From: Eledone cirrhosa | Taxonomy: Eukaryota | Length of the DNA stretch: 64,000 nucleotides | NCBI GenBank assembly: GCA_964016885.1 | Contig: OZ024741.1 | Coordinates: forward strand, 380,680,001-380,744,000 | Direction: 5' to 3' | In this document: positions 5,136-61,220 of the stretch, one piece after another | Layout: every line of letters begins with the position of its first letter | Numbering within the stretch: the stretch's first letter is position 1 | The notes under the pieces: generated by a model | The model's database searches: none | The model's input: only the letters and a program-made list of their open reading frames with translations | What the model was told of the DNA's origin: nothing | Position numbers and translations under genes: made by a program

Positions 5136-5319
5136 GGCGGTGGATTGGCAGTATCGATAGAGGGTCGGACGCCATGCTTTCCAGCATAGTTACGTCCCTT
5201 TGCGATCTGAGTTCAAACCCCGCCGAGGTTGACTTTGCCTTTCATCCTTACGGGGTCGATAAAATAAAGTACCAGTAATGCACTGGGTAATTGCTGGCCC
5301 TGTGCCTAAAGTAGAAACA
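5136..5319 (+). mobile_element. Near full-length ATT-tailed tRNA-derived SINE (Deu/Nin-like central domain) with 18-bp TSD
   Basis: A-box-like tggattggcag, B box gagttcaaaccc, central gactttgcctttcatccttacggggtcgataaaataaagtaccag. Exact TSD attatttagcaatttgac at 5118-5135 and 5320-5337. Confidence 0.92.
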
Positions 5320-7099
5320 ATTATTTAGCAATTTGACAAAAATAGATTTATGAATTAAATATCAGGCTTGGAAAACATACATATTGGAGGTGATATGATC
5401 AACTACATCCTTTCAAAATGTTGTTTCAGTATGGCCTCAGTCTATTCTTTGAAACCAGTAAAGGAAGTTAGACAAATATGTGCATAAATGTTTTAAACAG
5501 ATGTATATATAAGAAATTGTTTTAAACAGAGACTACTGTATCACATGGTGGTGATATGCTTGTATGGGTGAAACTACCACCACACCACCAATTTCTAACT
5601 AATTGGTGACAGAAGAGTTAGAATAATGTTATAACAGAATTGTTTAATATACAATCATACATTTCCTACTTCAAACACATGCTTAGCCAAAGCATGATTT
5701 ACTTGGATCATTCACATACCTTATTTTGTTATATCAGACAGGAAATTAAATATCTATGGTAGCATCTGTTATGAAGGGTTGCTAATAAAAGGGCCTACAC
5801 ACTTGAATTATCTAAATCATATTATTATTTGTGTACTTTGATTTGATTTGAAAATGATGAAAATATCAACACTTGATATAAAATACAAACAGAGGCTGTC
5901 GCCTTTGGTAACTCTATGTCTAGTAACTTTACTCTTCAACTTTTAGAATTTAATTTGTAAATAAGATCCCATAAGCAGTAGTGTAGTGATATAAAAGAAA
6001 TCTTACTACTTTATAATTAGATTGAGGTCATTAGCAGCGCCAGAGGAATTCAGACTTGTTTTCTTAACTTTAATGCAATAATGTTTACATTTAGCTTTGT
6101 AAGGTTTTCTCACTTGATGTATTTCAAGTCCTTTCAAGTTAAATTCTTTTATAAGTGATTTGATTATTTCATCAACAGTATTTTCTTTTCAAGTTTCCTC
6201 AAGTTGTTTAGCTTCTCTTAATAGAATATAAATAAACAACATACACACAAAATAGCAAATTATACAAGAAATCATGAGATAGGGCAGTAAGGTCAAACAA
6301 TTAAGACATATAGCGCTAAAATAATACAGTATTTTTGTTACATATAAGTAGATAGGGTACATTTCCCAAAACTTTCATGACCGATAAGTGAGCTGTACCA
6401 TAGGTGAGCCAACAACAGCGCTTCAACATGACCACTTAACATTCTAGAAATTGCAGACACATTCCCTAAATAACAATCTACCATCTTCTTGTATATGAGT
6501 ATAATATGTTATCTAAAACTAAGAAGGGGTGGTATAATGACTTGAATGCATCAAAATACGACTTTAGGTTTGCTCATATTCTTGAATTAAAGCTGTGGTT
6601 AGTTAGAATTGCCTAAATTATCATCCTCACATCTATCAAATTTAATCATTAATAGACTGTTTAATGTTTTCTAAAACTTTCTTTAAATATTTATCATCAG
6701 GCTCTCATCAATGTCTGAATATAAACATTTTTTTAAAATAAATTTGTAATTGTAGTAGGTTCTGGCATGTACTTTCGGGTTCAGTCAAACTTACCATTGT
6801 AAATTAGCTACTAAAGTCTTGGATGACCAATGCTTTATGAGTGAAATTTGGTACAGAAGCCAGTAATATATATATATCCATGCACAACAATTTGACTTTA
6901 GAATCTTTTCGAAAATTTATTATTTGAAATATACTTTACCAATTTTCTCAACTCTTATTTATAGTAATCAGCTTGCATGAGGAGTACCGTCTTTCTTTTC
7001 CCCATCATCATCAGACCAAAACACCTGAAACTACCCCTGGATACAAATCCATTTGTTTTAAAGTGTTTTTATTTAAATTTAAATTTCCTTCTATACCCA

Positions 7100-7420
7100 C
7101 TTATTCCTGAGAGGGTTTGGGGGTCTTGTTAGAAGCAATCATCTCCAATTGATCCAGCTGGATCTCCAAGCAAGACCAGTTGAGCTCATGGATGTTATCC
7201 AAACATCTTGCTCAGGGTTTCTCTGGATCTCCTGCCAGTTGGTTTTGACATTCTAACTTCATGCCACAGTATAGGATGTGTGACTTCTCAATTTGGAGAA
7301 GTAGCTGGAGTGATGCTCAGATCTCTAGGTAATGCAGTCTATCAAGTAATGTTACTCCAAAGGCGTTTTGGCACAACCCCATTTAAGCCACATGTATTTG
7401 CAATCATACTATTTTAGTTA
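7100..7420 (-). mobile_element. 3' relic of an RTE/Expander-like LINE
   Basis: Visible nucleotide similarity to 57400-57715, the 3' part of the degenerate RTE-like element. Confidence 0.5.
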
Positions 7421-7647
7421 TTAATGAATATAATTTTATCTAAAATATTTTATTATGTTTCAAATACTAACTTAAAAATGATAATGTTTGTTATACTTCT
7501 GAACTCCTTCAAATTCTTGATAATTGTCAAAATTAATTGAAAATTATTACCTGTGTCTTTCAGTAGAAATGAGAAATGGTTTTGTAATTCTAACCTCAGA
7601 TTTTCATGAAAGTAAATTTATATTCATTAATACTGAATTTATATTGC

Positions 7648-8010
7648 ATCATCATCGTTTTTATTTCTATTTTTCCATGCTCACATGGTTTGATGGGTGC
7701 TTTTCCACACAGTATCTTTCTACTCAGCACATTCCTTTATCATCTTCTATGTGACTCTCAGCAATTCGAGATCAGCTCTCTCCACCCCTGCCCAAGTTTT
7801 TCTTGGTCTAACTCTATTGTGGCTTCCTTCCACTGATATTTCCTGGTATTTCTTCACCCAGCAATCATCATCCATACACATCAAATGTCTGTACCAATGC
7901 AGTCTTCTCTCTAGTACACCACTTTGAATTCCTCTTAAACTCAGTTTTTTCCTCAGTTCATCCATGCTCTGCCTTTCTCTCAAATTTATATTGCACATCC
8001 AATGAAGCAA
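7648..8010 (-). mobile_element. 3' fragment of an RTE-clade LINE with (GAT)n tail
   Basis: ORF 7747..8058 reads RRLHWYRHLMCMDDDCWVKK...RPRKTW...DL, a typical RTE C-terminus. Related to 49020-49371, with a catcatcatc tail on the plus strand. Confidence 0.8.
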
Positions 8011-8029
8011 GATGTAACAAAATATATTG

Positions 8030-8236
8030 ATTTCTGATTTAGGTACAAGGCCAAACATTTTGGGAGTGGAGAAAGTCGGTTAAATCGACCCCAGTACATT
8101 ATTGGTACTTTATTTTAACGACTCCACAAAGATGAAAGGCAAAGCTAACCAAAGCAGGATTTCAACTCAGAACGTAAAGGGATATACTTATATTCCCGCA
8201 AAGCATGTTTTCTGATACTGCCTATCCACTGCCATT
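8030..8236 (-). mobile_element. ATT-SINE family copy (long subtype)
   Basis: ggtactttattttaacgactcc...gatgaaaggcaaagctaacc...tttcaactcaga. Confidence 0.75.
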
Positions 8237-15640: not shown

Positions 15641-15660
15641 TATTATTATTATTATTACTT

Positions 15661-15692
15661 TGTGTAAACCCTTGTGGTTAATAAAGAAAGCA
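15661..15692 (+). mobile_element. 32-bp 3'-terminal stub of a Tx1-like LINE
   Basis: tgtgtaaacccttgtggttaataaagaaagca matches the terminus at 16622-16653. Confidence 0.8.
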
Positions 15693-16653
15693 TCAAGCGA
15701 AGACCGAGAGGGAGTGCTTAGAGACTGAAATGTCTTCAGGCGCTCACAGCCCTCGACCAATCGGGCAATGTGATTGGTGGAAACTCCACCTCGGTGTTCT
15801 ATAGAGGATTAGTGGAGGGGAAGAGCGACGCCGTTCTTGGGGTAACTCTAGGCATCGACGAAAATCAACTAGCCAATCTCTTCGTAAGAACTCTCAGACC
15901 GGGGCCTATGGACAACTTCCAGAAATCCCTGGGCTGGCAGTGCTACCGAGGAGCTTTGCCAGTTCGCGATAAACTCTACAGGCATGGAGGTGCCATCAGC
16001 AGGGCATGTCCTAGATGCGCGCAGGGCGACGAAACCGTCCTGCATGCACTTGTCCAATGTCCGAGCATTGCTGAATTGTGGGTTTATGTCAAACACCTGC
16101 TGTCGCATGTAGAATGGATCTGTCTATCAGCTGAGTCCATCGTGAGGATTGCCCCGTCCTCTTCCTTTAGCCGGGAAGGGCAGGCAGTTTTTATCTGTCT
16201 GGTGGCCATGGCGAAAAAGATAGTATGGTGGAAACGTTTGAAAGGGCTGAAGACAACCACTTACCTCTTCGGTGATGCTCTGATTAACTTTTCCAAATTT
16301 CATTTGAAAAGGAAAATCAGGGTAGAGAGGGAAGTGCTCTCTTCCCAGCATTTTATTGAAAGATGGGTGAGAGAAGCAAGAATGGCCCGAGTGAATGGGC
16401 CTACTCTGAGTAAGTGTCTGTAAATTAAAGGTGGAAAACTGGGAGAGGGCACTTGCCCTGGTGGTCAGGGTCACTGTGATCTTTTAATTGGCTTTCTCCA
16501 CAAATGTCCCTCTGAAGTTTCCCCCTATTGGGGAATTTTTTATTGTTATTATTTGTTACATCCTCTGAAATGCCCATTTGTACCGTCCTGTATTGTCCTG
16601 TACTTTCCTTAATGTCTACTTTATGCAAACCCTTGTGGTTAATAAAGAAAGCA
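15693..16653 (+). mobile_element. 5'-truncated Tx1/L1-clade LINE (ORF2 C-terminus + 3' UTR)
   Basis: ORF 15770-16423 with C-terminal zinc motif CPRC...ETVLHALVQC. AATAAA, then an (ATT)n tail. Same subfamily as 26911-29810. Confidence 0.92.
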
Positions 16654-16899
16654 TTATTATTATTATTTGAGTCTTACTTCAAATTCTGCTTCTTTCACAA
16701 ACCAGAAGTATGAGGCTAAATTTGATAATACACACATTTACAATCAATTGCCATACATATGAGTAAAAGTCTTTGCAGGGATTTTAAATTGAAAATATCC
16801 TTCCCAGGATTTGAACAGTGACAGTCAGTACTATTTTTTGTATCTCTTACAGAGATGACTTTCTAGGTATCTGGTCAAAATATTTTTACAGTACTCTTT

Positions 16900-17103
16900 T
16901 GGCAGTAACGGTAGAGCATCAGACAATATGCTTTATGGCATAGGGTTACCCCCCTTTACAATCTGAGTTCAAATCCTGCTGAGGTTAGCTTTGCCTTTCA
17001 TCCTTACAGGGTCGATAAAATAAAGCACCAGTAATGCACTGGTGTTGATTTAATCGACTATCCCCTTCTCCCAAATTGCTGGCCTTTTTCCTAAAGTAAA
17101 AAC
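16900..17103 (+). mobile_element. ATT-SINE (long subtype)
   Basis: SINE consensus followed by an (ATT)n/(CTT)n tail at 17104-17180. Confidence 0.85.
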
Positions 17104-17138
17104 AATTATTATTATTCTCATTATTCTTCTTCTTCTTC

Positions 17139-17180
<42 letters not shown>

Positions 17181-17368
17181 GGGTGGTAGTTTGGTAGAAT
17201 CGGTAGGGCGTTAGATACCATGCTTTGCAGCATAGGAGTTTAGGCACTTTATATTTTGTGTTCAAATCCCGCCAGGTTAACTTTGTCTTTCATCCTTACG
17301 GGGTCAATAAAATAAAGTACCAGTAATGCACTGGAGTAATTGCTGGACTTGTGCCAAAAGTAGAAACA
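17181..17368 (+). mobile_element. ATT-SINE (short subtype), inserted in the tail of the previous SINE
   Basis: Full SINE consensus ending ttgtgccaaaagtagaaaca. Confidence 0.88.
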
Positions 17369-17395
17369 TAATAATAATAATAATAATAATAATAA

Positions 17396-17510
17396 TTGTT
17401 TCTACTTTAGGCACAAGGCCAGCAAATACCCAGTACATTACTGGTACTTTATTTTATCGACCCTGTAAGGATGAAAGGCAAAGTTAACCTCGACGGGATT
17501 TGAACTCAGA
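17396..17510 (-). mobile_element. ATT-SINE 3' half, inverted
   Basis: Reverse complement of the SINE 3' half, with (AAT)n on the plus strand on both sides. Confidence 0.88.
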
Positions 17511-17827
17511 TTGTAATAATAATAATGATAATAATAATAATAATAATGATTTCATTTATTGGCCACAAGGACCGACATATAGGGGACAATACAAAAGACT
17601 GGGACAGTGGGGTTTTACAGAAAAATCGAGTAAACAATATGAATAACAATAACAAAGTAACAATAACAAAGTAACAATAAAGTAACAATAAAATTACAAC
17701 AAGAGAAAATTCCCCAATAGGGGGGATGACCACCTAGGGTTCGCTCAGGTACCCCACCAGTCCTGAACGACCCGACGCTTCGAGAGCACCCTGGAAGGGC
17801 ACCCCTCTCCTCCTCAAATTTACCTAC

Positions 17828-20800
17828 CTACAGCCACATGACCAGAGTAGGCCCACTCACACGGGCCATTCTCGCCACATTCACCCACCTTTCAGTAAGG
17901 GGGGGGCAGTACTTCTCTCTCCACCCTCACCTTCCTTTCCAAGTGAAACTTGAAAAAGTTGATAAGGGATTGGCCGAAGGGAAAAGTGTATGTCTTCAGT
18001 CCTTTCAACCTCGTCCACCATACAACCTCTTTCGCTACTGCCACCAGACAGAGGAAAATTGACTGCCCTTCCTGGCCAAAAGAAGGCGGCGGGTCGATTT
18101 TCACTATGGACTCGGCCAATAGCCAGATCCGTTCTACACGCGACAACGGCTGTTCAACATAACTCCACAAATCAGTAATGCACGGACACTGGACGAGTGC
18201 GTGCAGAACAGTTTCGTCGCTCTGCGCGCATCTCGGGCCAGTCCGTCTGACAGCACTTCCGTGCCTGTAGAGTTTATCCCGAACCGGCAGTGCCCCCCGG
18301 TAGCACTGCCAAGCGAGGGATTTTTGGAAATTATCCATCGTCCCCGGTTCGAAAGTCCTCCGGTACAGACTGGTTAGTTCGACTTCGTTGACTACCAGAG
18401 CCTCTCTGAGTGCGTCGTCGCACTTGCCCACCACTAATCCTCTATAGAACTCGAGAGTGGAAGTTCCACTGACCGTATTTCCCGCCTGGTAGAGAGCAGT
18501 GAGTGCCTGGCAACATTCCAGATGCCAGTCACCCAGTCTCGGTCTCTTCTTGACCCAGGACTGCAGCTCAGTCAAAGAAACGAGCTGCGGAAAGGCCCGT
18601 CTGACAAATAGCGACCACACCTGTTCACCGTTTAGGCAGAATATCTGGAGATGCCTCAGCGCGTGCCGGCGCATCATTAGCCACGGCATGCCCAGCCCTC
18701 CACATAGAGGGTGCTGTCAACAGATGGACTGCCTCACCAGCGGAACCTGACCCCTCCACAAGAATTTAAAGACGAGCCGCTCCAAGATGGCGAGGCGCGA
18801 ACGGGGGCACGGGACGACGGTCAGACGGTAGTAGATGTACGCGTTCGCCACCTTCACCCGACCTTTCAGTGATAGCTTCATCCCAGTCCATTTCTGGGTG
18901 AGACTGGCTACTCTGCCCGTCACCTCGTCCCAATTCTTATCCATCTGGAGGTCTGGCCTGAACCAAACCCCTAGCAACTTTACCGGTCCATCCGTCCAGC
19001 GCCTAACGATGCTGTTGGACGGTATGGACTTTTCCGGGTTAAGTTTTGCTCCCGTCAACCTTTCATATTCCTCCAATAAGTTGCCGACCACCTCGATTTC
19101 TGAGGTGTCCGACACCATCACGGTGATGTCGTCCGCATAAGCCGACACAGCCTTTCCGCGTCCTGGTTCGAGCAGGATGCCCTGCAACAGATCCAGCTCC
19201 CACAGTAGAGGGCTCGAGAGTCAATATGTACAGAAGGGAGGAGAGAGGGCACCCTTGACGGACAGATCGGGAGACCTGAAACAGTTCCGAGAGGTAGCCA
19301 TTAATTTTGACCATCGAGCAGGTGCCGCTGTGCATTGCAGCGATCCAGCTTCTGAAGAAGGGGCCGAAGCCAGCCTCCTTGAGTACAGCCTCCAGGTGCC
19401 GATTGTCGACCCTATCGAATGCTTTCGATTGATCTAAATTGATCAGAGCCCCACCGCATTAAGTGGAGGTTGTCGTGTATGGACCTGGTTGAGATTGCGC
19501 AAGTTTGCGCCTCCCCAACCAAATCCCCGACGACAAGCGCCAACCTCTTCCCTAACACCCTGGCCAAAATCTTAAACTCTGTGTTGAGCAGAGTTATGTG
19601 CTTGAAATTGTCTAATGTGTCCCTCTTGCTGTCGTCTTTCCTTATCAGCGTCACTACGCCCCGGCTCACAGAACTAGGAATACTCCCGTTTTGCTGCCAG
19701 TTGCAATAGAGGGCTTCGAGGAGATTGGAGAACAAGTCTGGCATATTTACATAAAGCTCGTAGGGCAGACCATCCAAACCGGGTGACTTGCGCCTCATGC
19801 AGCCGACAAGGGCATCCTGAATCTCGGCTGAAGTAATTGGCCTTTCGCAGCGCCCAGCGACAGCCGTCGAGAGTTGCGGCAAGCCATCGAGGTAGGGACT
19901 GAAGTCCGCCACCATCTCTGACCCGCCACTTCCCCTGAACAACCGGGCAAAATGTTGGCGAAAGGCCTCACACATCCTCTTGGAATCGCTCATCTCGTGC
20001 CTGTCTCGGTCCGTCAAAGACCGAATCGTGGTTTTAATACCACGCTGCGCCTCTGCCACGCGGGCCCATCGGACAGCTTTGGTTCCCTCGTTTCTCAGAG
20101 CACGCGCCTTAGCTCTGACAATGCAACCTTCGTCTTTCGCATTGAAGAAATGGTCTAAGGCCATTCTCGCCGCTAGCACGTCAGTTGCAATGCCACTACC
20201 AATAGCCTCGTCTAACTTATCTACCAACTCTCCCTCCTTTCTATTTTTCTCTAACGCAACTTCTTTGCTAAACTCTATCGACATTACTCTAATCTCTCTT
20301 TTGAGAACCCCCCACCATCTATTGTTGACGACTCCCCTGTCAACTTTTTCTTAACTAAATTATTGACCTGGTCCCTGTAAGCATTACGTGCCGGAAATGA
20401 CATGTTTAGCTTCCAGTAACCAGGTCCTAACCTACGCGTCTTATCTAGGTCGACCATACAGATCACAAACTTGTGATCTGAATAGGCGACCGTTTCAAAA
20501 CGTGGACAGCTTACACTATTTCTGTCTATTTTCCTAATGAATATCTTGTCTATATACGATCTAGATGGCCCTATGCGGTTAGCCCAGGTTCACACTCGCA
20601 CATTAGGGAAATCTAATCGGTACCTGTCAGACAGTTGGAACTGGCTGATCAGGTTCTTGAGGCTTTTGCACCCCCCGCTCCTATCGGATACTCCCACACA
20701 GTCCCAGCGTGCGTCTAAGATGCCGTTGCAGTCCCCCGCTAACAGTAAAAGCCGAGACGTACACAGAAAGGCTTCCAAGCGTCTAAAGAAGTCCAGCCGT

Positions 20801-21152
20801 CCTGCCCCAGTAGGAGCATAGACGGCCACCAGTCTAAAGGCACCACTTTCGTTATTGTTCACGTCCCGGACCACCAACTTCCCGTCCGGGTCCCGGAAGA
20901 TCGACCTTACCTCGAGATCCAGCCTTTCCTAAACAGCACTGCAGCCCCGCTTCCCATTCCCGGCCGGCTAACAGATGCAAATATCTGATAGTCGTCGAAA
21001 ATGGGGGCTAGTGCGCGCGTGTAGGAAATCCTGGTCTCGCTGACGGCAATTACATCCATTTCTATAGACCTGAGGTCGTTGAGCAGGTGACCCTGCTTCC
21101 AGGACGATCCCAGGCCTCGAACATTTAAACATCCTACTCTTAATACGGCCAT
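17828..21152 (-). pseudogene. Tx1-like ORF2 (APE endonuclease + reverse transcriptase + C-terminal zinc motif), disrupted
   Basis: MAVLRVGCLNVRGL...AVSET; AVYAP; AGDCN; PGYWKLN; KSPGLDGLPYELY; RQGCPLS; AYADD; RC...HALVQC. Spread over several frames. Confidence 0.92.
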
Positions 21153-21187
21153 GTTGGCAGGTTAAAAAGAGAGAGAGGAAGGTTTAC

Positions 21188-23050
21188 TTACCTTCCGGGC
21201 TCTTGTGAAGGTCGGGTTGTTCGACCTCCATAGTTGGTGGGATTTCTTTTGGGAACCCTTTTAAAAGTATTGAAGTGGGTTTTACGTTCGGGTTCCCACG
21301 TCCCGAGGAAAGATGTCTTGTATTTCTTTGAATAAATCGTGCGACATTCGCACCAGAACCAAATCTTCCGGCAGGCGAAATGTGCTCGATTTAAAGATTT
21401 CCCTCTCTTTTTGTATATTTTCACTTCGTGCTACGAGGGCCATCAGTTCCTTGTTGGCCCTCCTGACGAGCACGAAGTTTTGTATGTTTTATTGGTGTGA
21501 TTTTATTTGTTTGCGTGGCTGTGGTGGTGATGGTTTTGGTGGTGTTGTTTCGGTTGTATCTGTGTTTGTTGTGAGTGCGGTGTCTGTGGTTTCAGATGTT
21601 TGTGTGTATATTTGTTCTTGCGTCTGTTTAGGTTGTTTGCGTTTGGGGGATTCTGGTGATGGTGATGGTGGTGTTGATGTTGCTGTTATTGCAGAGATGT
21701 TTGCATGGGTGGTGTCTGCGTTTTTTTTTATTGTGGGTGATTCTGTGCTTTGTTGAGTTTTTTTTTTCTTTTTGTGTTTCCTCTTTTGTATTTTGGGGAT
21801 TTTGGTTTTCCCTCATCTTCACTACTGGTCGATGAAGGGTCTGTGTATGTAAGTGTGTCTGTACGTATGTTTATGGTTTTATTGGTGTGTGTATTTTGGG
21901 GGGGAGGGGGAATTTGACAGCTTCCCTCATTTCCCCCCTGGATGGTCAATGTTGGTGGTGGTCTTTCTATTGGTGTTGTTGTTGGTGGTTTTGCCGGTGC
22001 TGGTGTTGGTTGTGGTCCTCGCCCCGGCGTCGGCAGTAGTGGAGCCTTTCGACCCCTTGCCTCTTTCAGCAGTTGAGGGAAGAAGGCTCGCAAATTGGTT
22101 TTTTCCCCACAAACAAAACACTGCAGCCTTTTGCCTTCGGTCATAATGTGAATGACCGTCCCATTCTGAAGGCGGATGTGGTTCGGGATTGTCTTCACAT
22201 TCTCGGACCTGATCTGGAGAAGGATCTCCAGGTCAACCCCGGACCAGTCCTCTCTGGCCGTTCTGGTCACTTCTATAGGGACGGTATCCGTCCCCTCCAC
22301 AATCACACATCCCAGAAGCCACCACATGTCAAGTTCTGGTGGGATTCTGGGAATGCGGAGACGGGCCGTTCTTTTTCCTATGACCTTGCTGGTTTTGCAA
22401 GGAGTCATAGCGTGTTTCATAGCGAGGGCTTCTGACTTGAACAACACCGAAATGGTGCTGTACGGTCTGCCCCTCTCTATGTATTCGGTGTCTTCTCTGA
22501 TGCACCTCAGCGCGACTTCGACATCTTCTTGTGGGATTAAAGCTGCTCTTTCGGTTTGTGCTGAGATGCATCTATAATGCACTGTTCTGCGCTCCACTGC
22601 CTCCATAGCTTCTGCCCGGGACAGTTAAGTTGGCCCAGGTTTGCTCTTGCTTGATGAGCTTCCATGCCTGGGCCAACTTTTCATCTTTGTTTGAGAGGTC
22701 CATGTTGAAGCATGGCCTCTTTTTTGCTGCTGCCGCAGCGAAAGTGTTCTTCTTGTTTTCGTTGGGGGTGTTGTTGTCGTTGTCGTTGTTCTTGTTGATG
22801 TTGTTGTTAGCACTGTCGCTGTTATCATTGTTGTCTTTGTTGCTTACGTTGTTATCGGTGCAGTTGGTATTGTTGGTGTTGGTGTTGTCGCTATTTGTTT
22901 TCATGTTAGTGGTGTTTATATTGTTGTTGCATTTGTTATTTTTTTTTTTGTTATCTGTAATTTCGTTGTCGCTGTTACTGTGATTTTTTTCAAAATTAGA
23001 GTTCTCATTGGTATCATTGGTGTTTTTGTTTACATTGTTTGTGGTGGTGT
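21188..23050 (-). pseudogene. Tx1-like ORF1 (Asn-rich N-terminus, degenerate zinc knuckle, Pro/Thr-rich tail), disrupted
   Basis: ORFs 22572-22904, 21728-22606 (CFVCGEKTNLRAFF) and 21282-21473 are homologous to ORF1 at 37237-38835. Confidence 0.8.
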
Positions 23051-23454
23051 TTGTGTTAATTTTGTTGTAGTGCTCCTCTCAACTTCTACATCGTTGTCGC
23101 ACGACAGCCGACATATCGCTGGGGGGCGTGGCTCAGCAATGTTTTTTTTTTCTCCGTAAATTTTTTAACATGTAAAACAGTTCAAATATTTGGGCCAAAA
23201 GGCCCAAATATTATACTTTGCCTTTAACAGGGCAAAGTCTAAGGCCTTATATCCCTTACACAACAAGAAATATTTAACAACAAATAATTTTAACAGGCAA
23301 ATAAAGCGACTTACTGGGAGCGAGCAAAATACGTCCGCTTAGAATAATAATAATAATAATAATAATAAACGTAAAGAAAAGAAAAAAGAAAAGAAAAACA
23401 AACAAACAAACAAAAAACTAAGTCAGACATTCAAACATTACATTACAATGAAAC

Positions 23455-26868: not shown

Positions 26869-26910
26869 AATAATAATAATAATAATAGTAATAATAATAA
26901 TAATATTAAT

Positions 26911-29810
26911 GATTTCTTTATTAACCATAAGGGTTTACACAAAGTAGACATTAAGGACAGTACAAGACAATACAGGACGGTGCAAATGGGAATTTCTGCA
27001 TGTGAAAAAACAAAAAACAGAGGATGTACCAAAAAAAGAAGAATTAAAAATTCCCCAATAGGGGAGAGTCTTCCGAGGGCCATCGTGGAGAAAGCCCATT
27101 AAAAATCCACGGTGACCCTGACCACCAGGGCAAGTGCCCTCTCCCAGTTTTCCACCTTCAGTTTACAGGCATATACTCAGAGTAGGCCCATTCACTCGGG
27201 CCATACTTGCCTCTCTCACCCATCTTTCAATAAAATGCTGAGAAGAGAGCACTTCCCTCTCTACCCTGATTTACCTTTTCTAATGAAATTTGAAAAAGTT
27301 AATCAGGGCATCACCGAAGAGGTAAGTGCTCGTCTTCAGCCCTTTCAAACGTGTACCCAAAACTATCTCTTTCGCCATGGCCATCAGACAGATAAAAACT
27401 GCCTGACCTTCCCGGCTAAAGGAAGAGGACGGGGCAATCCTCACGATGGACTCAGCTGATAGCTGGATCCGTCCTACACGCGACAACAGGTGTTCGACAT
27501 AAACCCACAAGTCAGCAATGCTCAGACACAGGACGAGTGCATGCAGGACGGTTTCGTCACCCTGCGCGCATCTCGGACATGCCCGGCTGATGGTACCTCC
27601 ATGCCTGTAGAATTTATCGCGAACTGGCAAAGCTTCTCGGTAGCACTGCCAGGGATTTCTGGAAGTTGTCCATAGGCTCCGGCCGGAAAGTTCTACCAAA
27701 GAGATTGGCTAGTTGATTTTCGTCAACGCCTAGAGTTACCCCAAGTATGTCGTCGCTCTTCCCCTCCACTAATCCTCTATAGAACGCCAAGGTGGTGTTT
27801 TCACCGATCACATTGCCCGATTGGTCGAGGGCTGTGAGCGTCTGAAGACATTCCAGTCTGCAAGCGCTCCCTCTCGGTCTTCGCTTGACCCAGGACTGCA
27901 GCTCCATCAAGGAGATGAGCTGGGGAAAGACGCGTCTAGCAAACGGCGACCACACCTGATAACTTTCGAGGAAGAGGTGGAAATGTCGTAGCCTGAGCGC
28001 GTGTCTGCGCATCATCAGCCACGGCATGCCCAGCCCTCCACGTAGCGGGTGTTGACAGCAGATGGACCGCCTGACCATCGAAGCGCGTCCCTTCCACAAA
28101 AGGCGAAAAAGCAAATGCAGTCAGGCGAGGCTTAGGACAAGGCACGGCGGTCAGACAGTAGTAGATGATGGACGTGTGTACGCGTTAGCCATCTCCGCTC
28201 GACCTCTCAGGGATAGCTTCCTCTCCGCCCATTTCTGGGTGAGAGAAGCCACCCTGCTCGTCACCTCGCCCCAGTTTTTGTCCGTCTGGAGGTCTGGACC
28301 GAATGAAACCCCTAGCAATTTAACCGGTCCATCCGTCCAGCGCCCGACGACGCCCTTGGACGGCATGGACCTGCCTCTCCAGGTGCCGAGCTGCAGGCCC
28401 ACCGACTTTTCCTGGTTGATCATTGCTCCTGTCACCGTTTCGTATTCTCTTAGTGTAGTGCCGATCGCCTCGATATGTTTGGCGTTCGTCACCAGTATGG
28501 TGACATTGTCCGCATATGCTGACACGGATCTTCCGCATCCTGGTTCGCGCGGGACCCCCTCAACGTCTCCAGTTTGTTCAGTAATGGCTCGAGAGTCAAT
28601 ACGTACAAGAGGGACGTACAATACGTACAAGAGGGATTTTTCTCCTTGGCGGACCCAGCTCATGATGTTGAACGGTTCCGAAAGGTGACCGTTCACTCTC
28701 ACTACAGAGCAGATGTTGCTGTGCATGGCAGCGATCCAGCCTCTGAAAACGGGCCCAAAGCCAGCCGCCCTAAGGACTGCTGCCAGATAACTATATTCGA
28801 CTCTATCAAAAGCTTTAGACTGATCTAAACTGATCAAGGACCCACCCGTGCCGGGTTCCCTAGCTACCCGCTCTACGATGTATCGCATGAGGTGGAGGTT
28901 GTCGTGGATGGACATGTCAGGATTGACGCATGTCTGCGCCTCTCCTACCAGACCACCAACCACAAGCGCCAACCTCTTGGCCAAAATCTTGAACTCTGTG
29001 TTTAACAGAGATATGGGCCTGAAATTATCTATGTTATCCCCCTTGTTCAGATCCTTTTTCAGCAGCACCACCACTCCTCGGCTCACAGATGTGGGAATTC
29101 TCCCGTTCTGTTGCAAGTTGCAGTAGACGTCCACTAAGAGGCCTCCAAACAAGTCTGGCATCTATACCTAAAGTTAATAGGGCAGACCATCCAAACCAGG
29201 CGATTTACCCCTTGTGCAGCCAGTCATTGCCTCCCGTACTTCAGCTGCTGTTATCGGCTTTTCACGACACTCCGGCTCAGTGGCCGAGAGCCGCGGCAGT
29301 CCGTCGAGGTACACACTAAAGTCCATCCCTCGATCCGGCCCATGGCTGCCCCCGAACAGCTGAGCGAAGTGTCGCTGAAAAGCTTCACCCATTTGCCCGG
29401 GATCATGTAGCATGCGCCCGTCGTGGTCCACCAAAGACCGGATCGTGGCTTTGTTGCCACGACGTGCCTCTGCAACTCGGGCCCATTAAACGGCTTCGTC
29501 CCCTCGTGTCTGAGAGCACGCACCCTAGCTCTGACAAGGCAGCCTTCGTGCTTTGCATTGAATAATTGGTCAAAGGCCAATTTCGCCGCAAGTACCTCGG
29601 TCGCGATGCCTTTGCTAAGCGTCTCGTCTAATTTTCTAACTAGTTCTCCTTCTGCTATATTTTTCTCGATTGCTAAACCCTTACTAAACCTCATGGACTC
29701 TGTTCTAATCGCTCTTTTCGGAGCAAACCATCACTTGTTGACAATGGCCCCCGTCAACGCCCGCTTAACTAGTTCGCTAATCCGGTCTCTGTAGGCCTTG
29801 CGCGCTGGTA
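26911..29810 (-). mobile_element. 5'-truncated Tx1/L1-clade LINE (copy D)
   Basis: RT ORF 28151-29161 (NFRPISLLN, LDQSKAFD, AYADN), C-terminal CPRC...HALVLC, and a 3' UTR like 16424-16653. Microsatellite on both sides. Confidence 0.93.
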
Positions 29811-32316: not shown

Positions 32317-32358
<42 letters not shown>

Positions 32359-32360
<2 letters not shown>

Positions 32361-36116: not shown

Positions 36117-36154
36117 ATTATTATTAGAAACAATTATTATTATTATTATCATTA

Positions 36155-36217
36155 TATTGTCCTGTACTGTCCTTAATGTCTACTTTATGTAAACCCTTGT
36201 GGTTAATAAAGAAAGCA
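36155..36217 (+). mobile_element. ~63-bp 3'-terminal stub of a Tx1-like LINE (D subfamily)
   Basis: Near-identical to 16591-16653 and embedded in (ATT)n. Confidence 0.88.
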
Positions 36218-36253
36218 ATATTATTATTATTACTATTATCATTATAGTTGCAT

Positions 36254-36740: not shown

Positions 36741-36757
36741 TATCATTATTATTATTA

Positions 36758-36852
36758 GGTTGACTTTGCCTTTCATCCTTATGGGGGTCGATAAAATAAA
36801 GTACCAGTAATGCACTGGTTAATTACTGGCCTTGTGCCTAAAAGTAGAAACA
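36758..36852 (+). mobile_element. ATT-SINE 3' half
   Basis: SINE 3' consensus between (ATT)n tracts. Confidence 0.88.
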
Positions 36853-36869
36853 ATTATTATTATTATATT

Positions 36870-37054
36870 GAGGGCGGTGAATTGGCAGTATCGGTAGAGG
36901 GTCGGATATGCTTTCCAACATAGTTACGTCCCTTTACGATCTGAGTTCAAATACCGCCGAGGTTAACTTTGCCTTTCATCCATACAGAGGTCGATAAAAT
37001 AAAGTACCAGTAATGTACTGGGTATTTGCTGGCCTTGTGCCAAAAGTAGAAACA
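36870..37054 (+). mobile_element. ATT-SINE, full length
   Basis: SINE consensus. Its (ATT)n tail leads directly into Tx1 copy H. Confidence 0.9.
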
Positions 37055-37236
37055 ATTATTATTATTATTGTTGGTGAAGCCACGCTTCTTATCGCCTCCA
37101 GTCTTTTTCAACGTTTTACCTCTTTTTCAACCGTTCTAAACCTTTTATTCAAGTTTTAAGTTTGATAAAAGTTTAGAAGAAGTGACCCACCTAACACAGG
37201 GGTTCACTAGTAAATAATACGGCACTCCTTTACGGG

Positions 37237-38835
37237 GTGTCGTATTCGTATATGTGTAAAAATATATTTTTGAAAAATTTCAACATGGATAACACAAGAA
37301 AGAGAGAGAGCGCTGTCAGACAACACAGAGAGAGGGAGACTTTATCAGCATGTCAACAAGACAGCGTTCAAGCGGAGGTAAATATAAACGAAAATATTAC
37401 AAACGAAAAAAAGTTTGTTACAGATTTAAAATTACCAAATATTTCTAACACAAACAACACCAACAATAACACCAACAACATCACCAACAACAACACCAAA
37501 AATAACAGCGGTAAAGTCGAGAACGACAATAACAAAAATAACAGCGGTAAGGTCGAGAACGACAATAACAAAAATAATAGCGGTAAGGTCGAGAACGACA
37601 ATAACAACAGCCACAACAACAATAATAGTAGGAACAGTATCAACAAAAACAACAATAATAACAACAGCCACAATAACAGTAACAGCAGCAACAGTATCAA
37701 CGAAAACACCAACAACTGTACCAGCGAAAAGAACAACAATGACACCGATACCTGTAATAGCGACCTCAGCACCACCAGTAAGACCAGTAGCGGCAGCAAT
37801 AGTGGTGCTGCTGAAAAAGGGACCACTTCTTTTGCAGGTGTCGCCCGAAATATCGAGACAGTGTTAGTCACAGAGGAGGAGATGGCAGTCGCAAGGGCCA
37901 TGGTGACAAGAAGCGCAAATAGAGTTTCCCTGAAACCTCCACCCAATTTTTTCAAGGACCAGCAACTACGGACGGTGACTTACCGCACCGTAAGCAAAAT
38001 CTCACATCGAGTGGAGAGAGCCACGGAGGCTCAAATCCAAAAGGCCTTGGGGTGCGTCTGGGCACGCAAAACCCACGTCACCCGAGGCAGAAAGTACGCC
38101 ACAGTAGACGTACTTTTCGCCACTCCCCAGGAAGCAAAGTCTCACTCTTTGGAAACCCTAAAGAGTGAGGAGTTAGTCTTGGTGCCCTCCTACTGCGGGC
38201 AGAAAATTGTGAGGGTCCCACCCGACGTGCCTATACCTTGGTTGGCCGCGTCTGTCCTTGCTGGAATTGAGAACAGGGCGACCATGCTGCAAGTAGAAAA
38301 AATAGGGAGAGAGAACTGGTCAGGTATAGGCATGCAAATGCTTATACAAACTGACCAGGAATGTATCGAGGCTATCCCCGATATCATAGACTTCGAGGAA
38401 GGACTCCAACTCCCTATAAGTGTAGAAGGAAGACGGCCAAAATGTTATCTCTGTGGGTCGAAAGGTCACCTCAGGGCCTTTTGCCCGCAGAAGACACCGA
38501 AGAGGGCCCTTCTCCTTCCAATACCTGGTCCGCTGCTACCAAGAGCAGGACAGGCAACAAACGAAGAAGCCCCTTCCACGGTGAGTAGGAAGGCAACGTC
38601 CGTAGCACCCGTACCAAGGCCACGGATAACTAAAGCAGCATCATCAGTAGCGGCAACACCAATAGCTACATTTGAAATAGCTACACCAGCAACAAAATTG
38701 CCGAAGAGGGCTCCACTACCACCACCAACAGCTGTGGAGCACATACCCCTCCCAGACGTCACAGAATCCGACATGGAGTTTGAGGCGGGAGTGATGTGGC
38801 AAACAGTCTGCCACAAAAAACAAAAAAACCCTTAG
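37237..38835 (+). CDS. Tx1-like ORF1p (Asn-rich repeats, CCHC zinc knuckle). Probable start ATG ~37285; probably continued originally to ~39942 via a frameshift in the A-run at ~38815-38828
   Basis: 532-aa open frame with CYLCGSKGHLRAFC (CX2CX4HX4C), collinear with ORF1 of copy B. Confidence 0.8.
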   Translation: MSYSYMCKNIFLKNFNMDNTRKRESAVRQHRERETLSACQQDSVQAEVNINENITNEKKFVTDLKLPNISNTNNTNNNTNNITNNNTKNNSGKVENDNNKNNSGKVENDNNKNNSGKVENDNNNSHNNNNSRNSINKNNNNNNSHNNSNSSNSINENTNNCTSEKNNNDTDTCNSDLSTTSKTSSGSNSGAAEKGTTSFAGVARNIETVLVTEEEMAVARAMVTRSANRVSLKPPPNFFKDQQLRTVTYRTVSKISHRVERATEAQIQKALGCVWARKTHVTRGRKYATVDVLFATPQEAKSHSLETLKSEELVLVPSYCGQKIVRVPPDVPIPWLAASVLAGIENRATMLQVEKIGRENWSGIGMQMLIQTDQECIEAIPDIIDFEEGLQLPISVEGRRPKCYLCGSKGHLRAFCPQKTPKRALLLPIPGPLLPRAGQATNEEAPSTVSRKATSVAPVPRPRITKAASSVAATPIATFEIATPATKLPKRAPLPPPTAVEHIPLPDVTESDMEFEAGVMWQTVCHKKQKNP

Positions 38836-39280
38836 ATTCACCCTCCAAAAGCGAAGGCATACAAAGAGGGGTAAAGGCAGCAAGGAAACTTGCAGCAACA
38901 CCACCACAAACACCAACAACGCAAACACAACAAGACACACACACCAAACAGCAACAAGAAGAAAATAGCAACAAAATCACCCCTCCCGCCAAAAAGTGCA
39001 CAGCCATAAACATGGCAAAAAAAAAACTCACACAATATATAATGCAGCACACAGACATCACAGAAAAAAACTACTACACCCCACCAACACCAAGAACTCT
39101 CCCGACAAACATAAGCATCATCGAAAGAAGAAAACGGCAACAAAATCCCCCCTCCCCCAAAAAGTACACAGCCAAAAACATAGCAAAAAAAGAACTCATA
39201 AAATATATAAAGCAACACACAGACATCACGGAAAAAAACTACTACACCCCACCAACACCTCTCCCGACAAACATAAGCGA

Positions 39281-39696
39281 TGTAGTGACCTACATTCCGC
39301 GGCTCACATACATTCTCTGTGCGGGATTTGGCTCAGCTCAGCCAATCAGCGCCAGTAGAAGAGGATGTATCCCTACGCGTTCTGAGGGAGAAATAGCCCG
39401 CAAAGATTTGAGGACGCTATCTCTTCCAGCTAGGCCGTGCTAAGGTAAACACCACTTGTTCTTTTGCTCCGTAAGCACAAACAATATGTAACGACAAAAC
39501 ATTACCTACGAGCCTGGCCAAACGCCTTCAGCCAGTTGCCCGTATTTTCTCTTGTAATCTTAATTGATTTGTTTTATTTCTCTTGGCATGCCAACTCAAC
39601 CTCTGTTAATAAATAATGTAAAACTAAGCTGAAGTCGTTGTTGATATTCCTATCACATCTTTCTGCCAAACCTGGTTCCTCGTGGCAACCTTACCA
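39281..39696 (+). mobile_element. Putative solo LTR-like insert within ORF1 of copy H
   Basis: Abrupt compositional change. TG...CA ends (tgtagtg...ttacca), CCAAT at ~39342 and AATAAA at ~39608. No counterpart in copy B, and no TSD recognised. Confidence 0.45.
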
Positions 39697-39974
39697 ACTT
39701 CTAAATACTTCTCCGCTAAATTGGTGACTTATATTCAACAAAGAGAAACATTCTTTTCCTTTAGCATCATCGAAATCTCAATAGAACAGTACAAACCCTT
39801 AAAACAAAAATTCCCCAACACAGTTGGAGACTTCAGAGGGACGGTTACCAAGAGGATATACACCGACATCCTCTTGGAAACACCCATGACCAGCGAAAGG
39901 GACGGTTCTACTGTCCCTTCACCACACGAACAAGGTAAGTGACCCTTTCTCATTTGCCCCATTTCTCATCCAAT

Positions 39975-42900
39975 ATGGCTGTACTCAGAATAGGCAGTAT
40001 AAATGCACGTGGCCTGGGGTCATCTTGGAAGCAGGGTCACCTGCTCAATGACCTCAGGTCACTAAACATAGATGTGGTGGCCATCAGTGAAACCAGAATC
40101 TCCGAGGCACGGGCCTTCGCACCGATCTTCGGCGGCTACGATGTATACGCATCTCCCAGCCGTCCAGGATCGAGGGGAGGGTTGGATCTCGCAAGGCTAT
40201 CTTCTTGGACCCAGAAGGTAAGTCGGTGGTGCTGGACGTGACCGGCAGTGAAGGCAATGCTTTCAGGCTAGTAGCCGTCTATGCCCCAATGGGGGCAGGA
40301 TGGCCAGATTTCTTCAGACGTCTAGAGACTTTTCTTGGAACGTCCCGCTCTTTAGTGTTAGTGGGCGACTGGAACGGTATCTTGGATGCACGCTGGGATC
40401 ATGTGGGGCTAGTGGATAGGGGAGGAGGGTGCAAGAGCCTCACCAACCTGCTCAGACGTTTTGAACTGTCTGACAGGTATCGACTGGATCACCCGAATGT
40501 GCCAATGTGGACATGGACAAAACGCATCGGGTCATCCAGATCGTATCTAGATAGGGTATTCTGCAGGGAACTAGATAAGGCTAGTATAAGGTGTCAACAA
40601 TTTAAAATAGTCGACTACACAGACCACAAATTTGTGATCTGTGAGATCAACATAGACAGACTTCATAGACAAGGGCCTGGTTACTGGAAGCTGAACGCGA
40701 CTTTCCCAGCGTGCAAGGCCTACAGAGACCGGATTAGCGTATTAGTTAAGCGGTCGTCAACAACAGGTGTGGTTCACCCTGAAAAGGGCAATTAAAGTAG
40801 AGTCGATTAGGTTTAGCAAAGGAGTAGTGATAGAGGAAAATAGAGTAGAGGGAGAGCTAGTCAGAAAGCTAGAAGAAGCGTTTAGGACAGGCATCGCAAC
40901 CGACGTGCTTGCGGCCAGATTGGCACTCGACCAATTCTTCAACGCAAAACACGGAGGCTGCGTTGTCAGAGCTAGAGCGCGTGCTCTGAAACACGAGGGG
41001 ACAAAAGCCGTCCAATGGGCCCAGGTGGCCGAGGTGTGACGTGGCAACAAAGCCACAATTCGGTCTTTGCCTGACCAAAACGGGTGCGTGATGCTCGAAC
41101 CCAAGCGGCACTTGGTTGAACTGTTCGGGAGTGGTGGTGGCCCGGATCGGGGCATGGACTTCAGTGCATACCTCGACGACCGCAGCACAGTGTTGCAAAG
41201 AGCCAATAACAGCCGGTCAAATACGGGAAGCGATGGCTAAGTGCACAAGAGGTAAATCGCCAGGTTTAGATGGTCTGCCCTACGAGCTTTATGCATTTAT
41301 GCCAGACTTGTTCGGTGACCTCTTGGCAGACGTCTACTGCAACTGGCATCAGAACGAGAGCATTCCCAGTTTTGTGAGCTGAGAAAAGACCCGAACAAGG
41401 GAGATGTTATTGATAATTTCAGGCCCATAACGCTGCTAAACGCAGAGTTCAAGATTTTGGCCAAGGTGTTAGCAACGAGGTTGGCGCTTGTCGTCAGGGG
41501 TCTATGGGAGAGGCGCAGACATGCGCCATTCCGGACAGAGCCATACACGACAACCTCCACCTCATGCGATACATCATAGAGAGGGTGGTTAAGGAACCTG
41601 GCAAGGGTGGGGCCCTGATCAACTTGGATCAATCCAAAGCATTCGATAGGGTCGACCATCGGTACCTGGCGGCGGTTCTCGAGGCAGCCGGTTTCGGGCC
41701 CGTTTTCAGGCGTTGGATCGCAGCAATGTACAGCGACATCTGCTCAGTTGTGAGGGTGAACGGTCACCTGTCGCAGCCGTTCAGAATCATGCGCTCAGTC
41801 CACCAGGGTTGTCCCCTCTCGTCCCTCTTGTACGTATTGGCTCTCGAGCCATTACTGCACAAACTGGGGGTGATGAGGGGCGTCCCACACGAACTAGGAT
41901 GTGGGAAATCCGAGTCGGCTTACGCTGACGATGTCACCGTGGTGGTGTCGAGCACCAGACACCTCCAGATGCTCGGCACCGCTCTCAAGGAATACGAAGC
42001 GGTGACAGGAGCAAAGATAAACCAGGAAAAGTCGGTGGGCTTGCAGCTAGGCACCTGGAGAGGCAAGTCTATGCCGTCCAACAGCGTCGTGGGGCGTTGG
42101 ACGGACAGACTGGTTAAATTGCTTGGGATTTGGTTTGGACCGGACCTCCAGATGGAGAAAAACTGGAACGAGGTGACGAGCAGGGTGGCCTCCCTCACCC
42201 TGAAATGGGCGGAGAGGAAGCTGTCCCTGAAAGGCCGGGCGGAAGTGGCGAATGCGTACATCGCATCCGTCATCTGCTACCACCTCACCGTCGTCCCTTG
42301 CTCCAGCCCAACTATCACCAAAATGGAGCGCCTCCTCTTCCACTTTTTGTGGAAGGGACGCGCTCCCATGGCCAGACAATCCCTCTGCTGTCAACACCCG
42401 TTGCGTGGAGGACTGGGCATGCCATGGCTGATGATGCGCAAACATGCGCTGAGGCTGCGACATCTCTGGTGCTTCCTTGATGGTGAACGGGTGTGGTCGC
42501 CGTTCGCCAGGCATGTTTTCCCCCAGCTCGTCTCCTTGACGGAGCTGCAGTCCTGGGTCAAGCGAAGACCGAGGGATAGCGCTTGGAAACTGGAATGTCT
42601 CCAGGCACTCACTACCCTCTCCCAGTTGGGCACCAGTATCGGTGGAACATCCACCTCGGCGTTCTATAGAGGACTAGTGGAGGGGAAGAGCGACGACATT
42701 CTCGGGGAGATCCTGGGCGTCGAAGAAGATCAGCTGTTTGCTCTCTTCCGGAGAACTTTCAGCCCGGGGCCTATGGATAACTTCCCAAAATCCCTGGCCT
42801 GGCAGTGCTACCGGGGAGCGCTGCCGGTTCGAGATAAGCTCTACAGGCACGGAAGTGCCGTCAGCCGAGCCTGTCCGAGATGCGCGCATAGCGACGACAC

Positions 42901-43291
42901 CGTTGTGCACGCACTCGTTCAGTGCCCGAGCATTACTGACTTGTGGAGGAGCTATGTCGAACAGTTGCTGTCGCGTGTGGGACTGATCCGGTTGTCGACT
43001 GAGTCCATTGTGCAGATGGTCTCGTTGTCTTCCTTCGAGGAGGAAGGGCAGGCGGTTTTCATCTGCCTGGTGGCCATGGCTAAAGAGATGGTGTGGTGGA
43101 CAAGGTTAAAAGGATTAAAGACAAACACTTTCCTCTTCGGCGAATCCCTGATTAACTTTTTCAAATTTCACTTGAAGAGGAAAATCAGGGTGGAGAGGCA
43201 AGTGCTGCTTTCTAGCAAGTTTGTTGAAAGGTGGGTGAATGTAGCGAGAATGGTCCGAGTGAACGGGACCGCTCTGAATATACGTCTGTAG
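39975..43291 (+). pseudogene. Tx1-like ORF2 (APE + RT + zinc motif). 5' half frameshifted; last 595 codons open
   Basis: MAVLRIGSINARGL...AISET; VGDWN; YLDRVF; TDHK; LDQSKAFDRVDH; HQGCPLS; AYADD; CPRC...HALVQC. Confidence 0.93.
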
Positions 43292-43618
43292 TTTGAGAGA
43301 TGGAAAAATTGAGAGAGTGCGCTTGCCCTGGTAGTCAGGGTGGCCGTGGTCTTTTGTGTGGTTTTCGCCACGAGTAACCCTCGGAGGTTTCCCCCCTATT
43401 GGGGAATTTTTCATTGTTTCAATTTTCATTTTATTGTTTATATATATATATGTTTTATGTCTTTTTTTTCTTTTCTTATATAAATAATAAAAATATTTAC
43501 ACGCACAAACCCACATCGTACCGTCCTGTTCCGTCTGTGATGTTTTTCTTGATGTCAGCCCTTGTGGCCAATAAAGAAATCATTATTATTATTATCATTA
43601 TTATTATTATCATTATTA

Positions 43619-43830
43619 GTGGATTGGCAGTGTCAGTAGAGCATCAGACAACATGCTCTACTGACATTGCCAATGGCCCTTTACGTTCTGTGTTCAAATC
43701 ATGCTGAGGATAGCTTTGTCTTTCATTCTTACAGGGTCAATTATATAAAGTACCAGCAATGCACTGGTGTCAATTTAATCAACTTTCCCCTACTATAAAA
43801 TTACTGGCCTTGCACCTAAATCAGAAACCA
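43619..43830 (+). mobile_element. ATT-SINE (long subtype) with (ACT)n-like tail
   Basis: SINE consensus immediately after the tail of copy H. Confidence 0.82.
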
Positions 43831-59950: not shown

Positions 59951-60009
59951 AGGTAGCAGGTCAGTCGCTGTTGCTTAGGTGCTAGATGTAGACTGCATTG
60001 TTTTTTTAA

Positions 60010-60229
60010 CCCTTTAGCATTTAAACCAGCTGTATCCGTCCAGAATTCTCTCACCTTTTTCTGTTCAAACCGGCTGTAACTGGCCACTCATACTGATGTT
60101 AAGGTATTGTTCTCAAAATAAATAATATCAAAATCTCAACAATTCGATATTATGTGAGATATTATGTGAGAAAAAGCCTTTACTGCAAAAATACAACAGT
60201 AAATATAGAGTAATGTGAATACTAAAGGG
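60010..60229. mobile_element. MITE with TIR CCCTTTAG(C/T)ATT and TTAA/TTTA flanks (piggyBac-like ends)
   Basis: ttaa|ccctttagcatt ... aatactaaaggg|ttta. Confidence 0.75.
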
Positions 60230-61053
60230 TTTAGTATTCACATTCCTTTAACTAAGGCCTGAATGCATCCCTTGTTAACTCATATGAAGGACAATGTGGT
60301 ATGATTCGTTTTAATGCATCTGGTCATATAACAATTTTATCTGGTAATTTTATCAGGCCTACAAAAACTAAGCTTTTTTAGAAGTGGCTTTTTCTTGCCT
60401 CATAACTACATCACTGCGTTATGAGAATTTTCTTGAGAACTAACAGTGTCATCCATTGCTCTATCTCCTCAATTAGCTTACCATTGTTTGATCTGGGGTT
60501 GCTTATTTGTCCAGCAGGAGCCCATTTATACTGCATCTAGCCATTATATATTTTGTTCCCATCATTATCCACTACTTGAGGCCTGTTCTCTAGCAGAATA
60601 GCTCTGCTGAGAAAGATTTAAACTCAGAACATAAAAAAGTCTTTCGGATTTAAAATCTGAATATTAGAATTTTGTCTGACACCCTTAGGATTCTGCCACT
60701 CCACAGAGAACATCTGCGACTAACCCAGGTTCTGCTGCACATCGGGCTGAGGAGGCCATGCTCCTCAAATACTGGTTGCTCTCTGACAGGTTTGCAGTTG
60801 TACATCTGGCAGTGGAGACTTCTGGTGTCCTCGGCCCTAGGGCTACCGCCTTACTCACCACCATAGATGCTGAGCTGGCCAACCGCAGGTGTGAACCCCG
60901 CGAGTCAAGATAGTCTATATATTGTTACTCACCCTACAAGAAATAGCAACCAAGTGAACAAGTTTCCCTCAATTCCCAATCTACTGTTGTAAATTAAAAA
61001 AAACCCACTGGATGGTGTAGTTTTAGATATGCTATGATTGACAAAAAAATAAT

Positions 61054-61220
61054 TGTTTCTACTTTAGGCACAAGGCCAGCAATTATCCAGTACATTACTG
61101 GTACTTTATTTTATCGACCCCGTAAGGATGAAAGGCAAAGTTAACCTCAGCGGGATTTGAACTCAAACCGTAAAGGGACGTAACTATGCTAGAAAGCATG
61201 GCGTCCAACCCTCTACCGAT
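61054..61220 (-). mobile_element. ATT-SINE, slightly 5'-truncated, with 15-18-bp TSD
   Basis: Very close to the 5136 copy. Direct repeat gattgacaaaaaaataat at 61036-61053 and 61218-61235. Confidence 0.92.

Follow-up and report, generated by a model that had tools for sequence, protein, structure and literature searches.

The closest described counterparts of the elements considered here are pairs of a long interspersed element (LINE) and a short interspersed element (SINE) with a common 3' end. In the L2/CR1 pairs (UnaL2/UnaSINE, ZfL2-1/2), as presented in the relevant parts of PMC4176376 and PMC3747384, this end is short, its loop is kept and the letters of its stem vary; the former paper, in the same parts, reports that the L2 protein of open reading frame 2 (ORF2) reads both the loop sequence and the stem pairing. 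The name 'TX1' in PMC4176376 designates mutant proteins and not the clade, and the paper was set aside as a source on Tx1. Pairs with compensatory hairpins are also described for the L1 clade in monocots and Chlamydomonas (maize LINE1-1_ZM with ZmSINE2/3, Chlamydomonas L1-1_CR with SINEX-3) in the corresponding sections of PMC3747384, whose Table 1 contains 58 SINE-LINE pairs, none of them with a Tx1 partner. Here, we consider a candidate pair formed by Tx1 elements and a very abundant SINE in a window, i.e., the whole stretch of 64,000 nt at positions 380680001-380744000 of contig OZ024741.1, of the 3.0-Gb genome of the octopus Eledone cirrhosa. The SINE end matches the Tx1 ends, and both elements insert at sites of one kind; borrowing of the Tx1 copying enzyme by the SINE is therefore likely. 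In our opinion, with a probability of about 0.7, the SINE is copied in trans by ORF2p of Tx1 subfamilies that target (ATT)n, and this protein is predicted to recognise a small hairpin at the RNA end.

The pair resembles the L2/CR1 pairs in its short common end with a kept loop and varying stem letters, and differs from them in that its LINE belongs to the L1/Tx1 group, in that most of the repeat following the end stems from target duplication rather than from an element-encoded tail, and in that the pairing is known from sequence alone. In the plant pairs, likewise, an L1-clade LINE and a tRNA SINE have a common 3' hairpin with compensatory changes; here, however, the host is an animal, the lineage is target-specific and of Tx1 type, the loop is another one and the stem is shorter.

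Crocodilian SINEU was tied to Tx1 by target preference and by U1/U2 heads (Kojima 2015, PMC4494074), and the sections of that paper on Tx1-Mar propose Tx1 as the driver from a common target and overlapping age, which is the likeness to the present case. The initial annotation cited SINEU as a precedent of tail sharing between Tx1 and a SINE. This cannot be upheld, as the 3' end of SINEU-1 is, according to the sections concerned, common to no LINE; SINEU has small nuclear RNA heads and poly(A) tails, whereas here the 3' end is common besides the target. Without this precedent, the Tx1-SINE tail pair is more novel, not less. Insertion into simple repeats is described in the same sections for Kibi, Koshi and the crocodilian (TTCC)n/(TTTC)n Tx1 elements; the targets here are different, (ATT)n and (TATC)n, the two groups being compared by description only.

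A search of full-text literature gave no Tx1-SINE tail pair; repeat databases lay outside it, so a prior description is possible. No driver named for the present SINE family was found in this literature, and no partner is named for the SINE in the parts of PMC4824008, PMC5786205, PMC8967140, PMC10294476 and PMC4758252 that were at hand. A variant of the known LINE-SINE tail partnership, new in its Tx1-type partner, is well supported by the sequence comparisons given below. That the dominant SINE is driven by a microsatellite-targeting Tx1 via a conserved 3' hairpin, and would be the first tail-sharing Tx1-SINE pair with its RNA chosen by structure and not by poly(A), is a tentative proposal, to which we give slightly less than even odds. 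If it is true, an animal protein of the L1/Tx1 group uses stem-loop recognition, which bears on whether the poly(A) dependence of mammalian L1 is a derived state. Twelve subfamilies with one hairpin and two targets would separate RNA recognition from DNA targeting and provide natural variants of the stem and loop.

The 3' end common to Tx1 elements and the SINE

The ORF2 of Tx1 subfamily H contains the Pfam domains Exo_endo_phos, RVT_1 and zf-RVT, i.e., an APE endonuclease (EN), a reverse transcriptase (RT) and a C-terminal zinc-binding region. The best solved match of its RT is human L1 ORF2p (E 1e-22; R2 about 1e-10), and it matches proteins named TX1 149 kDa protein at 36-38%. By this domain set and by the RT nearest to L1/Tx1 proteins, the LINE is a member of the L1/Tx1 group; the protein names and the target specificity suggest its placement in Tx1 rather than in L1. 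The ORF2 C-termini of 11 Tx1 sequences compared are 57-92% identical, and their tree, constructed without curated Tx1 references, did not resolve the deep forks or the split between the groups with (ATT)n and (TATC)n targets.

The genome was sampled as 1 Mb of evenly spaced stretches and a number of targeted loci (about 0.06% of the genome), and Tx1 3' ends were gathered from 12 subfamilies in the 1-Mb sample and by targeted searches. Subfamilies A, B, G, H, I and Q, with D near A, target (ATT)n, and J, K, M, N, O and P, with the same 3' hairpin, a (TATC)n-like sequence; J is located in a degenerate (TATC)n-type repeat (six-subfamily set: L181-L225, L292, L329, L332, L335). In all 12 subfamilies, the end consists of a 3-bp stem with a loop of 5 nt (6 nt in Q, represented by one copy), followed by a poly(A) signal and a purine-rich tetramer. 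Genome-wide, a pattern of the Tx1-type end with the hairpin left open was found 33,541 times vs 1,156 for the control, and the 3-bp stem forms, by eye, in 84 of the first 100 matches listed; the exact SINE tail was found 181,340 times vs 0 for the reversed control. The end motif of the SINE and Tx1 is far beyond chance.

The hairpins lie where the initial annotation had placed them (see the table). The stem of 3-4 bp that it gave was confirmed as to 3 bp, since the fourth, outermost pair is formed in just 6 of 14 aligned ends. The majority forms of families B and G lack the wobble and the loop variant, respectively, that it gave, and its loop variant in D is rare among A-like relatives, so all three are probably single-copy mutations. 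The statement that every end is followed by (ATT)n fails at the copy at 15667. Nor is (ATT)n the tail of the element, as had been assumed: it is mostly duplicated target DNA, because six subfamilies have the same hairpin followed by (TATC)n-like sequence and because the target duplications of the SINE usually start at the first A.

The last 25 nt of the SINE align to the Tx1 ends without gaps. In the short form, 14-18 identities were counted with 11 of the 12 Tx1 ends and 12 with the twelfth, vs 7-13 with 14 non-Tx1 ends (three CR1, five RTE-type, four R4, one RNase H LINE and one Penelope); the long forms gave 13-18 and 7-11, respectively. The shuffle p of the match was at most 0.004 for 10 of 11 Tx1 ends. 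A profile made from 11 Tx1 ends only gave the SINE 11.2 bits, which was matched by 2 in 1 million shuffled positions, and the best non-Tx1 end 2.6 bits. The distance from the loop to the insertion point is equal in the SINE and in Tx1 A, H, K, M and P (shift 0). Thus, the shared 3' end proposed initially beats all the other scored ends, and its register with the insertion point is exact; the proposed check for a better CR1 or L2 match is answered in its CR1 part, none of the three CR1 ends being better in a scored set without L2.

All 275 SINE-like tails in the sampled DNA stand behind a SINE body (264) or look like truncated or decayed SINEs (11), and no LINE with the SINE's own tail was found among them. 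A hybrid pattern combining the SINE-type stem with the Tx1-type spacer has 269 matches genome-wide; inspection of 30 of them showed SINEs, ends or remnants of Tx1 and unassigned single matches, with no LINE carrying the SINE tail. Most of 20 extra endonuclease loci belong to CR1 and RNase H families that were in the scored set, and two late LINE ends (L358, L368) showed, by eye only, no resemblance to the SINE. As partners, R4/Dong (complementary-repeat end, 8-12/25), RTE ((GAT)n ends, 7-13/25) and CR1-2 (another tail repeat and no evident duplication in nine called 5' ends) were rejected.

Covariation was studied in an alignment of 14 ends (11 Tx1 and three SINE forms), with 2 of 16 ends, the G loop variant and Q with its 6-nt loop, omitted. 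Stem cells are paired in 83.9% of cases vs 71.7% after shuffling (none of 500 shuffles was as high), and pairing in slid registers is at most 62.5%. RNAalifold predicts the three core pairs. The closing pair is invariant, the middle one is C-G in 11/11 Tx1 ends and G-C in 3/3 SINE forms, and the third is G-C with two exceptions, A-U in family A and a mismatch in one end. Each of the two core-stem changes affects both bases and preserves the pair. In this sense the stem co-varies as claimed initially; the extent had been overstated, since about two independent family-level events account for the core stem. Of seven Tx1 46-mers, six have the hairpin in their minimum-energy fold, five of them with a lower stem under it. 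This second stem, set off by an internal loop, is predicted for Tx1 A, H, K, M and P and is a further likeness to the L2/CR1 pairs. In 60-nt windows, its median probability is 0.79-0.98 in five of six Tx1 groups. Among the rows listed for three contig runs aligned to window positions 36000-37075, no stem variant from another species appeared; the alignment passed over the G/A tail region as repetitive.

Another dispersed repeat contains, between the same flanks, what remains of a Tx1-like 3' end whose stem is broken (L297, L302, L303, L314, L315).

Insertion sites, age and the probable driver of the SINE

The SINE is non-coding and about 185 or 215 nt long and has a high copy number, 5'-truncated copies and target duplications. 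Its short, younger form has a median divergence of 4.0% from the majority (n=57), and its long, older form 10.8% (n=9); the short form is deleted by about 29 nt upstream and has kept the Tx1-like end. In the 1-Mb sample, 140 SINE bodies were found, 112 of them with the tail. The head bears A- and B-box-like motifs recognised by eye; ARAGORN and Rfam found nothing in the window, including no tRNA match for the SINE head. All common variants lack the poly(A) signal of the Tx1 ends, and the SINE is likely a Pol III transcript. The abundant tRNA-type octopus SINEs OK, OR1 and OR2 were reportedly described by Ohshima and Okada in 1994, and the present SINE can be related to them by description only; it may resemble the MetaSINE superfamily with its 66-bp Meta central domain. 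Older repeats (L063, L110, L112, L117, L339) have the central body of the SINE followed by a different pyrimidine-rich 3' part, and possibly represent a sister SINE with another tail. SINEs make up about 12% of an octopus genome according to the sections of PMC13282606 on repeats.

Of 112 SINE ends sampled at random, 85 have ATTAT behind them, as do 35 of 38 Tx1-H ends, its background being 0.28%. Genome-wide, the (TATC)n-type 5-mer was found behind none of the SINE ends (in the positive control, 2,674 ends had a T there), and this favours Tx1 elements of the (ATT)n group. At 68 of 125 SINE ends, a flank of at least 9 nt, mostly 9-22 nt and usually counted from the first base, is duplicated upstream, in a count that had no matched control and included tandem arrays. 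The divergence of Tx1 A is 5.0% (n=7) and that of Tx1 K 2.5% (n=4), both in small samples; the ages of the SINE and Tx1 overlap. The shared end supports the partnership with Tx1 put forward initially, and target site, target duplication and age fit the (ATT)n-targeting group; the looser target use of the SINE does not.

The mechanism may be imagined as follows. Template switching to a Tx1 RNA would have given the SINE its tail; the poly(A) signal, of no use to a likely Pol III transcript, would have been lost afterwards or at that time. By analogy with L2, the hairpin would be bound by Tx1 ORF2, which would then nick the DNA strand opposite ATTAT and begin reverse transcription 16 nt past the loop, at a fixed distance. 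The (ATT)n runs open to pairing may be longer for Tx1 read-through RNA than for SINE RNA, and this would account for the looser target use of the SINE.

A number of observations weigh against this interpretation, beginning with the limits of the duplication count given above. (ATT)3 stands behind 32,446 of 181,340 SINE ends (18%) vs 32 of 38 Tx1-H ends, and of 33 called Tx1 5' ends only 13 had a target duplication, which in nearly every case lay within (ATT)n and was thus of ill-defined length. The SINE end is nearest to the (TATC)n-targeting K and P (16-18/25), and the (ATT)n group gives 12-17. CR1-2 and RTE-1 reach 13/25 with the short SINE (p 0.01 and 0.03, respectively), the long form not being significant, and L2, Hero and R2 ends are outside the scored set. 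A very young (ATT)n-tailed CR1 has intact 957-aa frames, while an intact full Tx1 ORF2 was not searched for. The covariation of the core stem amounts to those two or so events, and the shuffle control ignores relatedness. The median hairpin probability is 0.0 in Tx1 J (60 nt); the hairpin appears in neither of two SINE 46-nt minimum-energy folds, and its median probability in the SINE falls from 0.44 at 60 nt to 0.04 at 185 nt (n=55). In the full-length SINE copy of the window, the best fold includes the hairpin with a probability of 0.31. Since the Tx1 folds are strong and the SINE folds weak, the predicted hairpin is well supported for Tx1 ends and only plausible for SINE RNA, and we are less confident of the hairpin as the recognised feature than of Tx1 as the driver.

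Tx1 could also mobilise the SINE with its ORF2 reading the primary end sequence or the target pairing, the hairpin being incidental or serving 3'-end processing of Tx1. The weak predicted folding in SINE RNA and Tx1 J, the few covariation events and the position of the Tx1 hairpin directly upstream of the poly(A) signal agree with this; the double, pair-keeping nature of both core-stem changes and the retention of the stem in a SINE that lacks the poly(A) signal do not, and we regard this explanation as rather unlikely. It is less probable still that the tail came from Tx1 long ago and that another LINE copies the SINE at present, for instance the young (ATT)n-tailed CR1-1, priming on ATT microhomology. 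This element is indeed very young (two copies are 99.4% identical and there are many open frames of 957 aa; L356, L357), all 30 sampled copies end in (ATT)n, and the SINE uses its target more loosely than Tx1 does. However, the CR1-1 end matches the SINE at 8-10/25, a clear target duplication was seen by eye at only 1 of 28 called CR1-1 5' junctions while the SINE usually has one, and the young short SINE kept the Tx1-like end despite its upstream deletion.

There is a small chance that a closer, true tail belongs to a LINE family outside the sample, such as L2, Hero, R2 or a rare CR1. The sampled fraction of the genome is low, and cephalopods have L2, Hero and R2 according to the relevant parts of PMC8967140 and PMC13282606; yet none of the 275 SINE-like tails stands behind recognisable LINE sequence, the 30 inspected hybrid-pattern matches included no LINE with the SINE tail, and the extra endonuclease loci were mostly of known kinds, with two new ends unlike the SINE by eye. 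Coincidence aided by A-rich composition is the most improbable explanation and is already largely excluded: the match covers just 25 nt with 7-13 mismatches, but a profile score expected about twice per million positions falls exactly at the insertion point. The copying of the SINE by (ATT)n-targeting Tx1 is thus our preferred reading.

Elements of the window and neighbouring repeats

The window consists of broken non-LTR elements nested around (ATT)n runs, and its repeats include Tx1, Dong-R4, RTE, CR1, Penelope and the SINE. A similar repeat content is reported for octopus in the consulted part of PMC13282606.

Table. Tx1 and SINE copies of the window, with the positions of the 3' hairpin or of the 25-nt end that bears it
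Element	Position	Strand	3' hairpin or end	Remarks
Tx1 H	37070..43581	+	43558-43568	apparently near full length, broken ORFs; 5' end adjoins (ATT)5 downstream of SINE
Tx1 H, pieces	37195-38835; 40091-40795; 41417-43291	+		ORF1-like; EN; RT/C-terminal, respectively
Tx1 B	17548..23342	-	17561-17573	broken; (ATT)n flanking both sides
Tx1 G	32358..36116	+	36091-36103	broken; (ATT)n flanking both sides
Tx1 D (A-like)	26911..29810	-	26923-26935	5'-truncated, 5' limit approximate; tail-to-tail with R4/Dong element
Tx1 A	15700..16652	+	16628-16640	5'-truncated; third pair A-U
Tx1 A	15657..15691	+	15667-15679	3'-end fragment, 35 nt; no (ATT)n behind
Tx1 A	36156..36216	+	36192-36204	short 3'-end fragment
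SINE, short form	36870..37054	+	37030-37054	near full length; A-/B-box-like head (by eye), central body; Tx1-like last 25 nt
SINE, short form	5136..5319	+		18-bp target duplication (5118-5135, 5320-5337) starting ATTAT
SINE, short form	61054..61218	-	61054-61078	~18-bp target duplication starting ATTAT
SINE, short form	36757..36852	+	from 36827	5'-truncated
SINE, short form	17397..17516	-	17397-17421	5'-truncated; inserted behind Tx1 B
SINE, short form	17176..17368	+		tail-to-tail with the 17397..17516 copy over one (ATT)n run
SINE, short form	1488..1625	-	1488-1512	5'-truncated
SINE, long (older) form	16890..17104	+		loop mutated
SINE, long form	43617..43829	+		immediately behind (ATT)n of Tx1 H; stem mutated
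SINE, long form	8021..8235	-		degenerate; limits approximate

Two SINE copies in opposite orientation with a common (ATT)n run form a long inverted repeat (window 17176-17516). The R4/Dong elements (window 26869-26910 and 36217-36739) end in a complementary repeat and lie tail-to-tail with Tx1 in one microsatellite, an arrangement seen again at many sampled Tx1 loci. The ORF1-like frames of Tx1 (window 37195-38835 and 21728-22624) have Asn/Thr-rich low-complexity parts and a CCHC-like motif, and gave no Pfam match at E 0.001. The 3' end of the young CR1 (L356, L357) carries a hairpin followed by (ATT)n twice in succession. Another repeat, unassigned and with its end just before (ATT)n, was found as an inverted pair (L085:2650-2840 and its reverse copy, L014) and is perhaps a DNA transposon end. 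Finally, an RTE-type RT fragment in the window is followed by a PHD-finger match (48288-48827).

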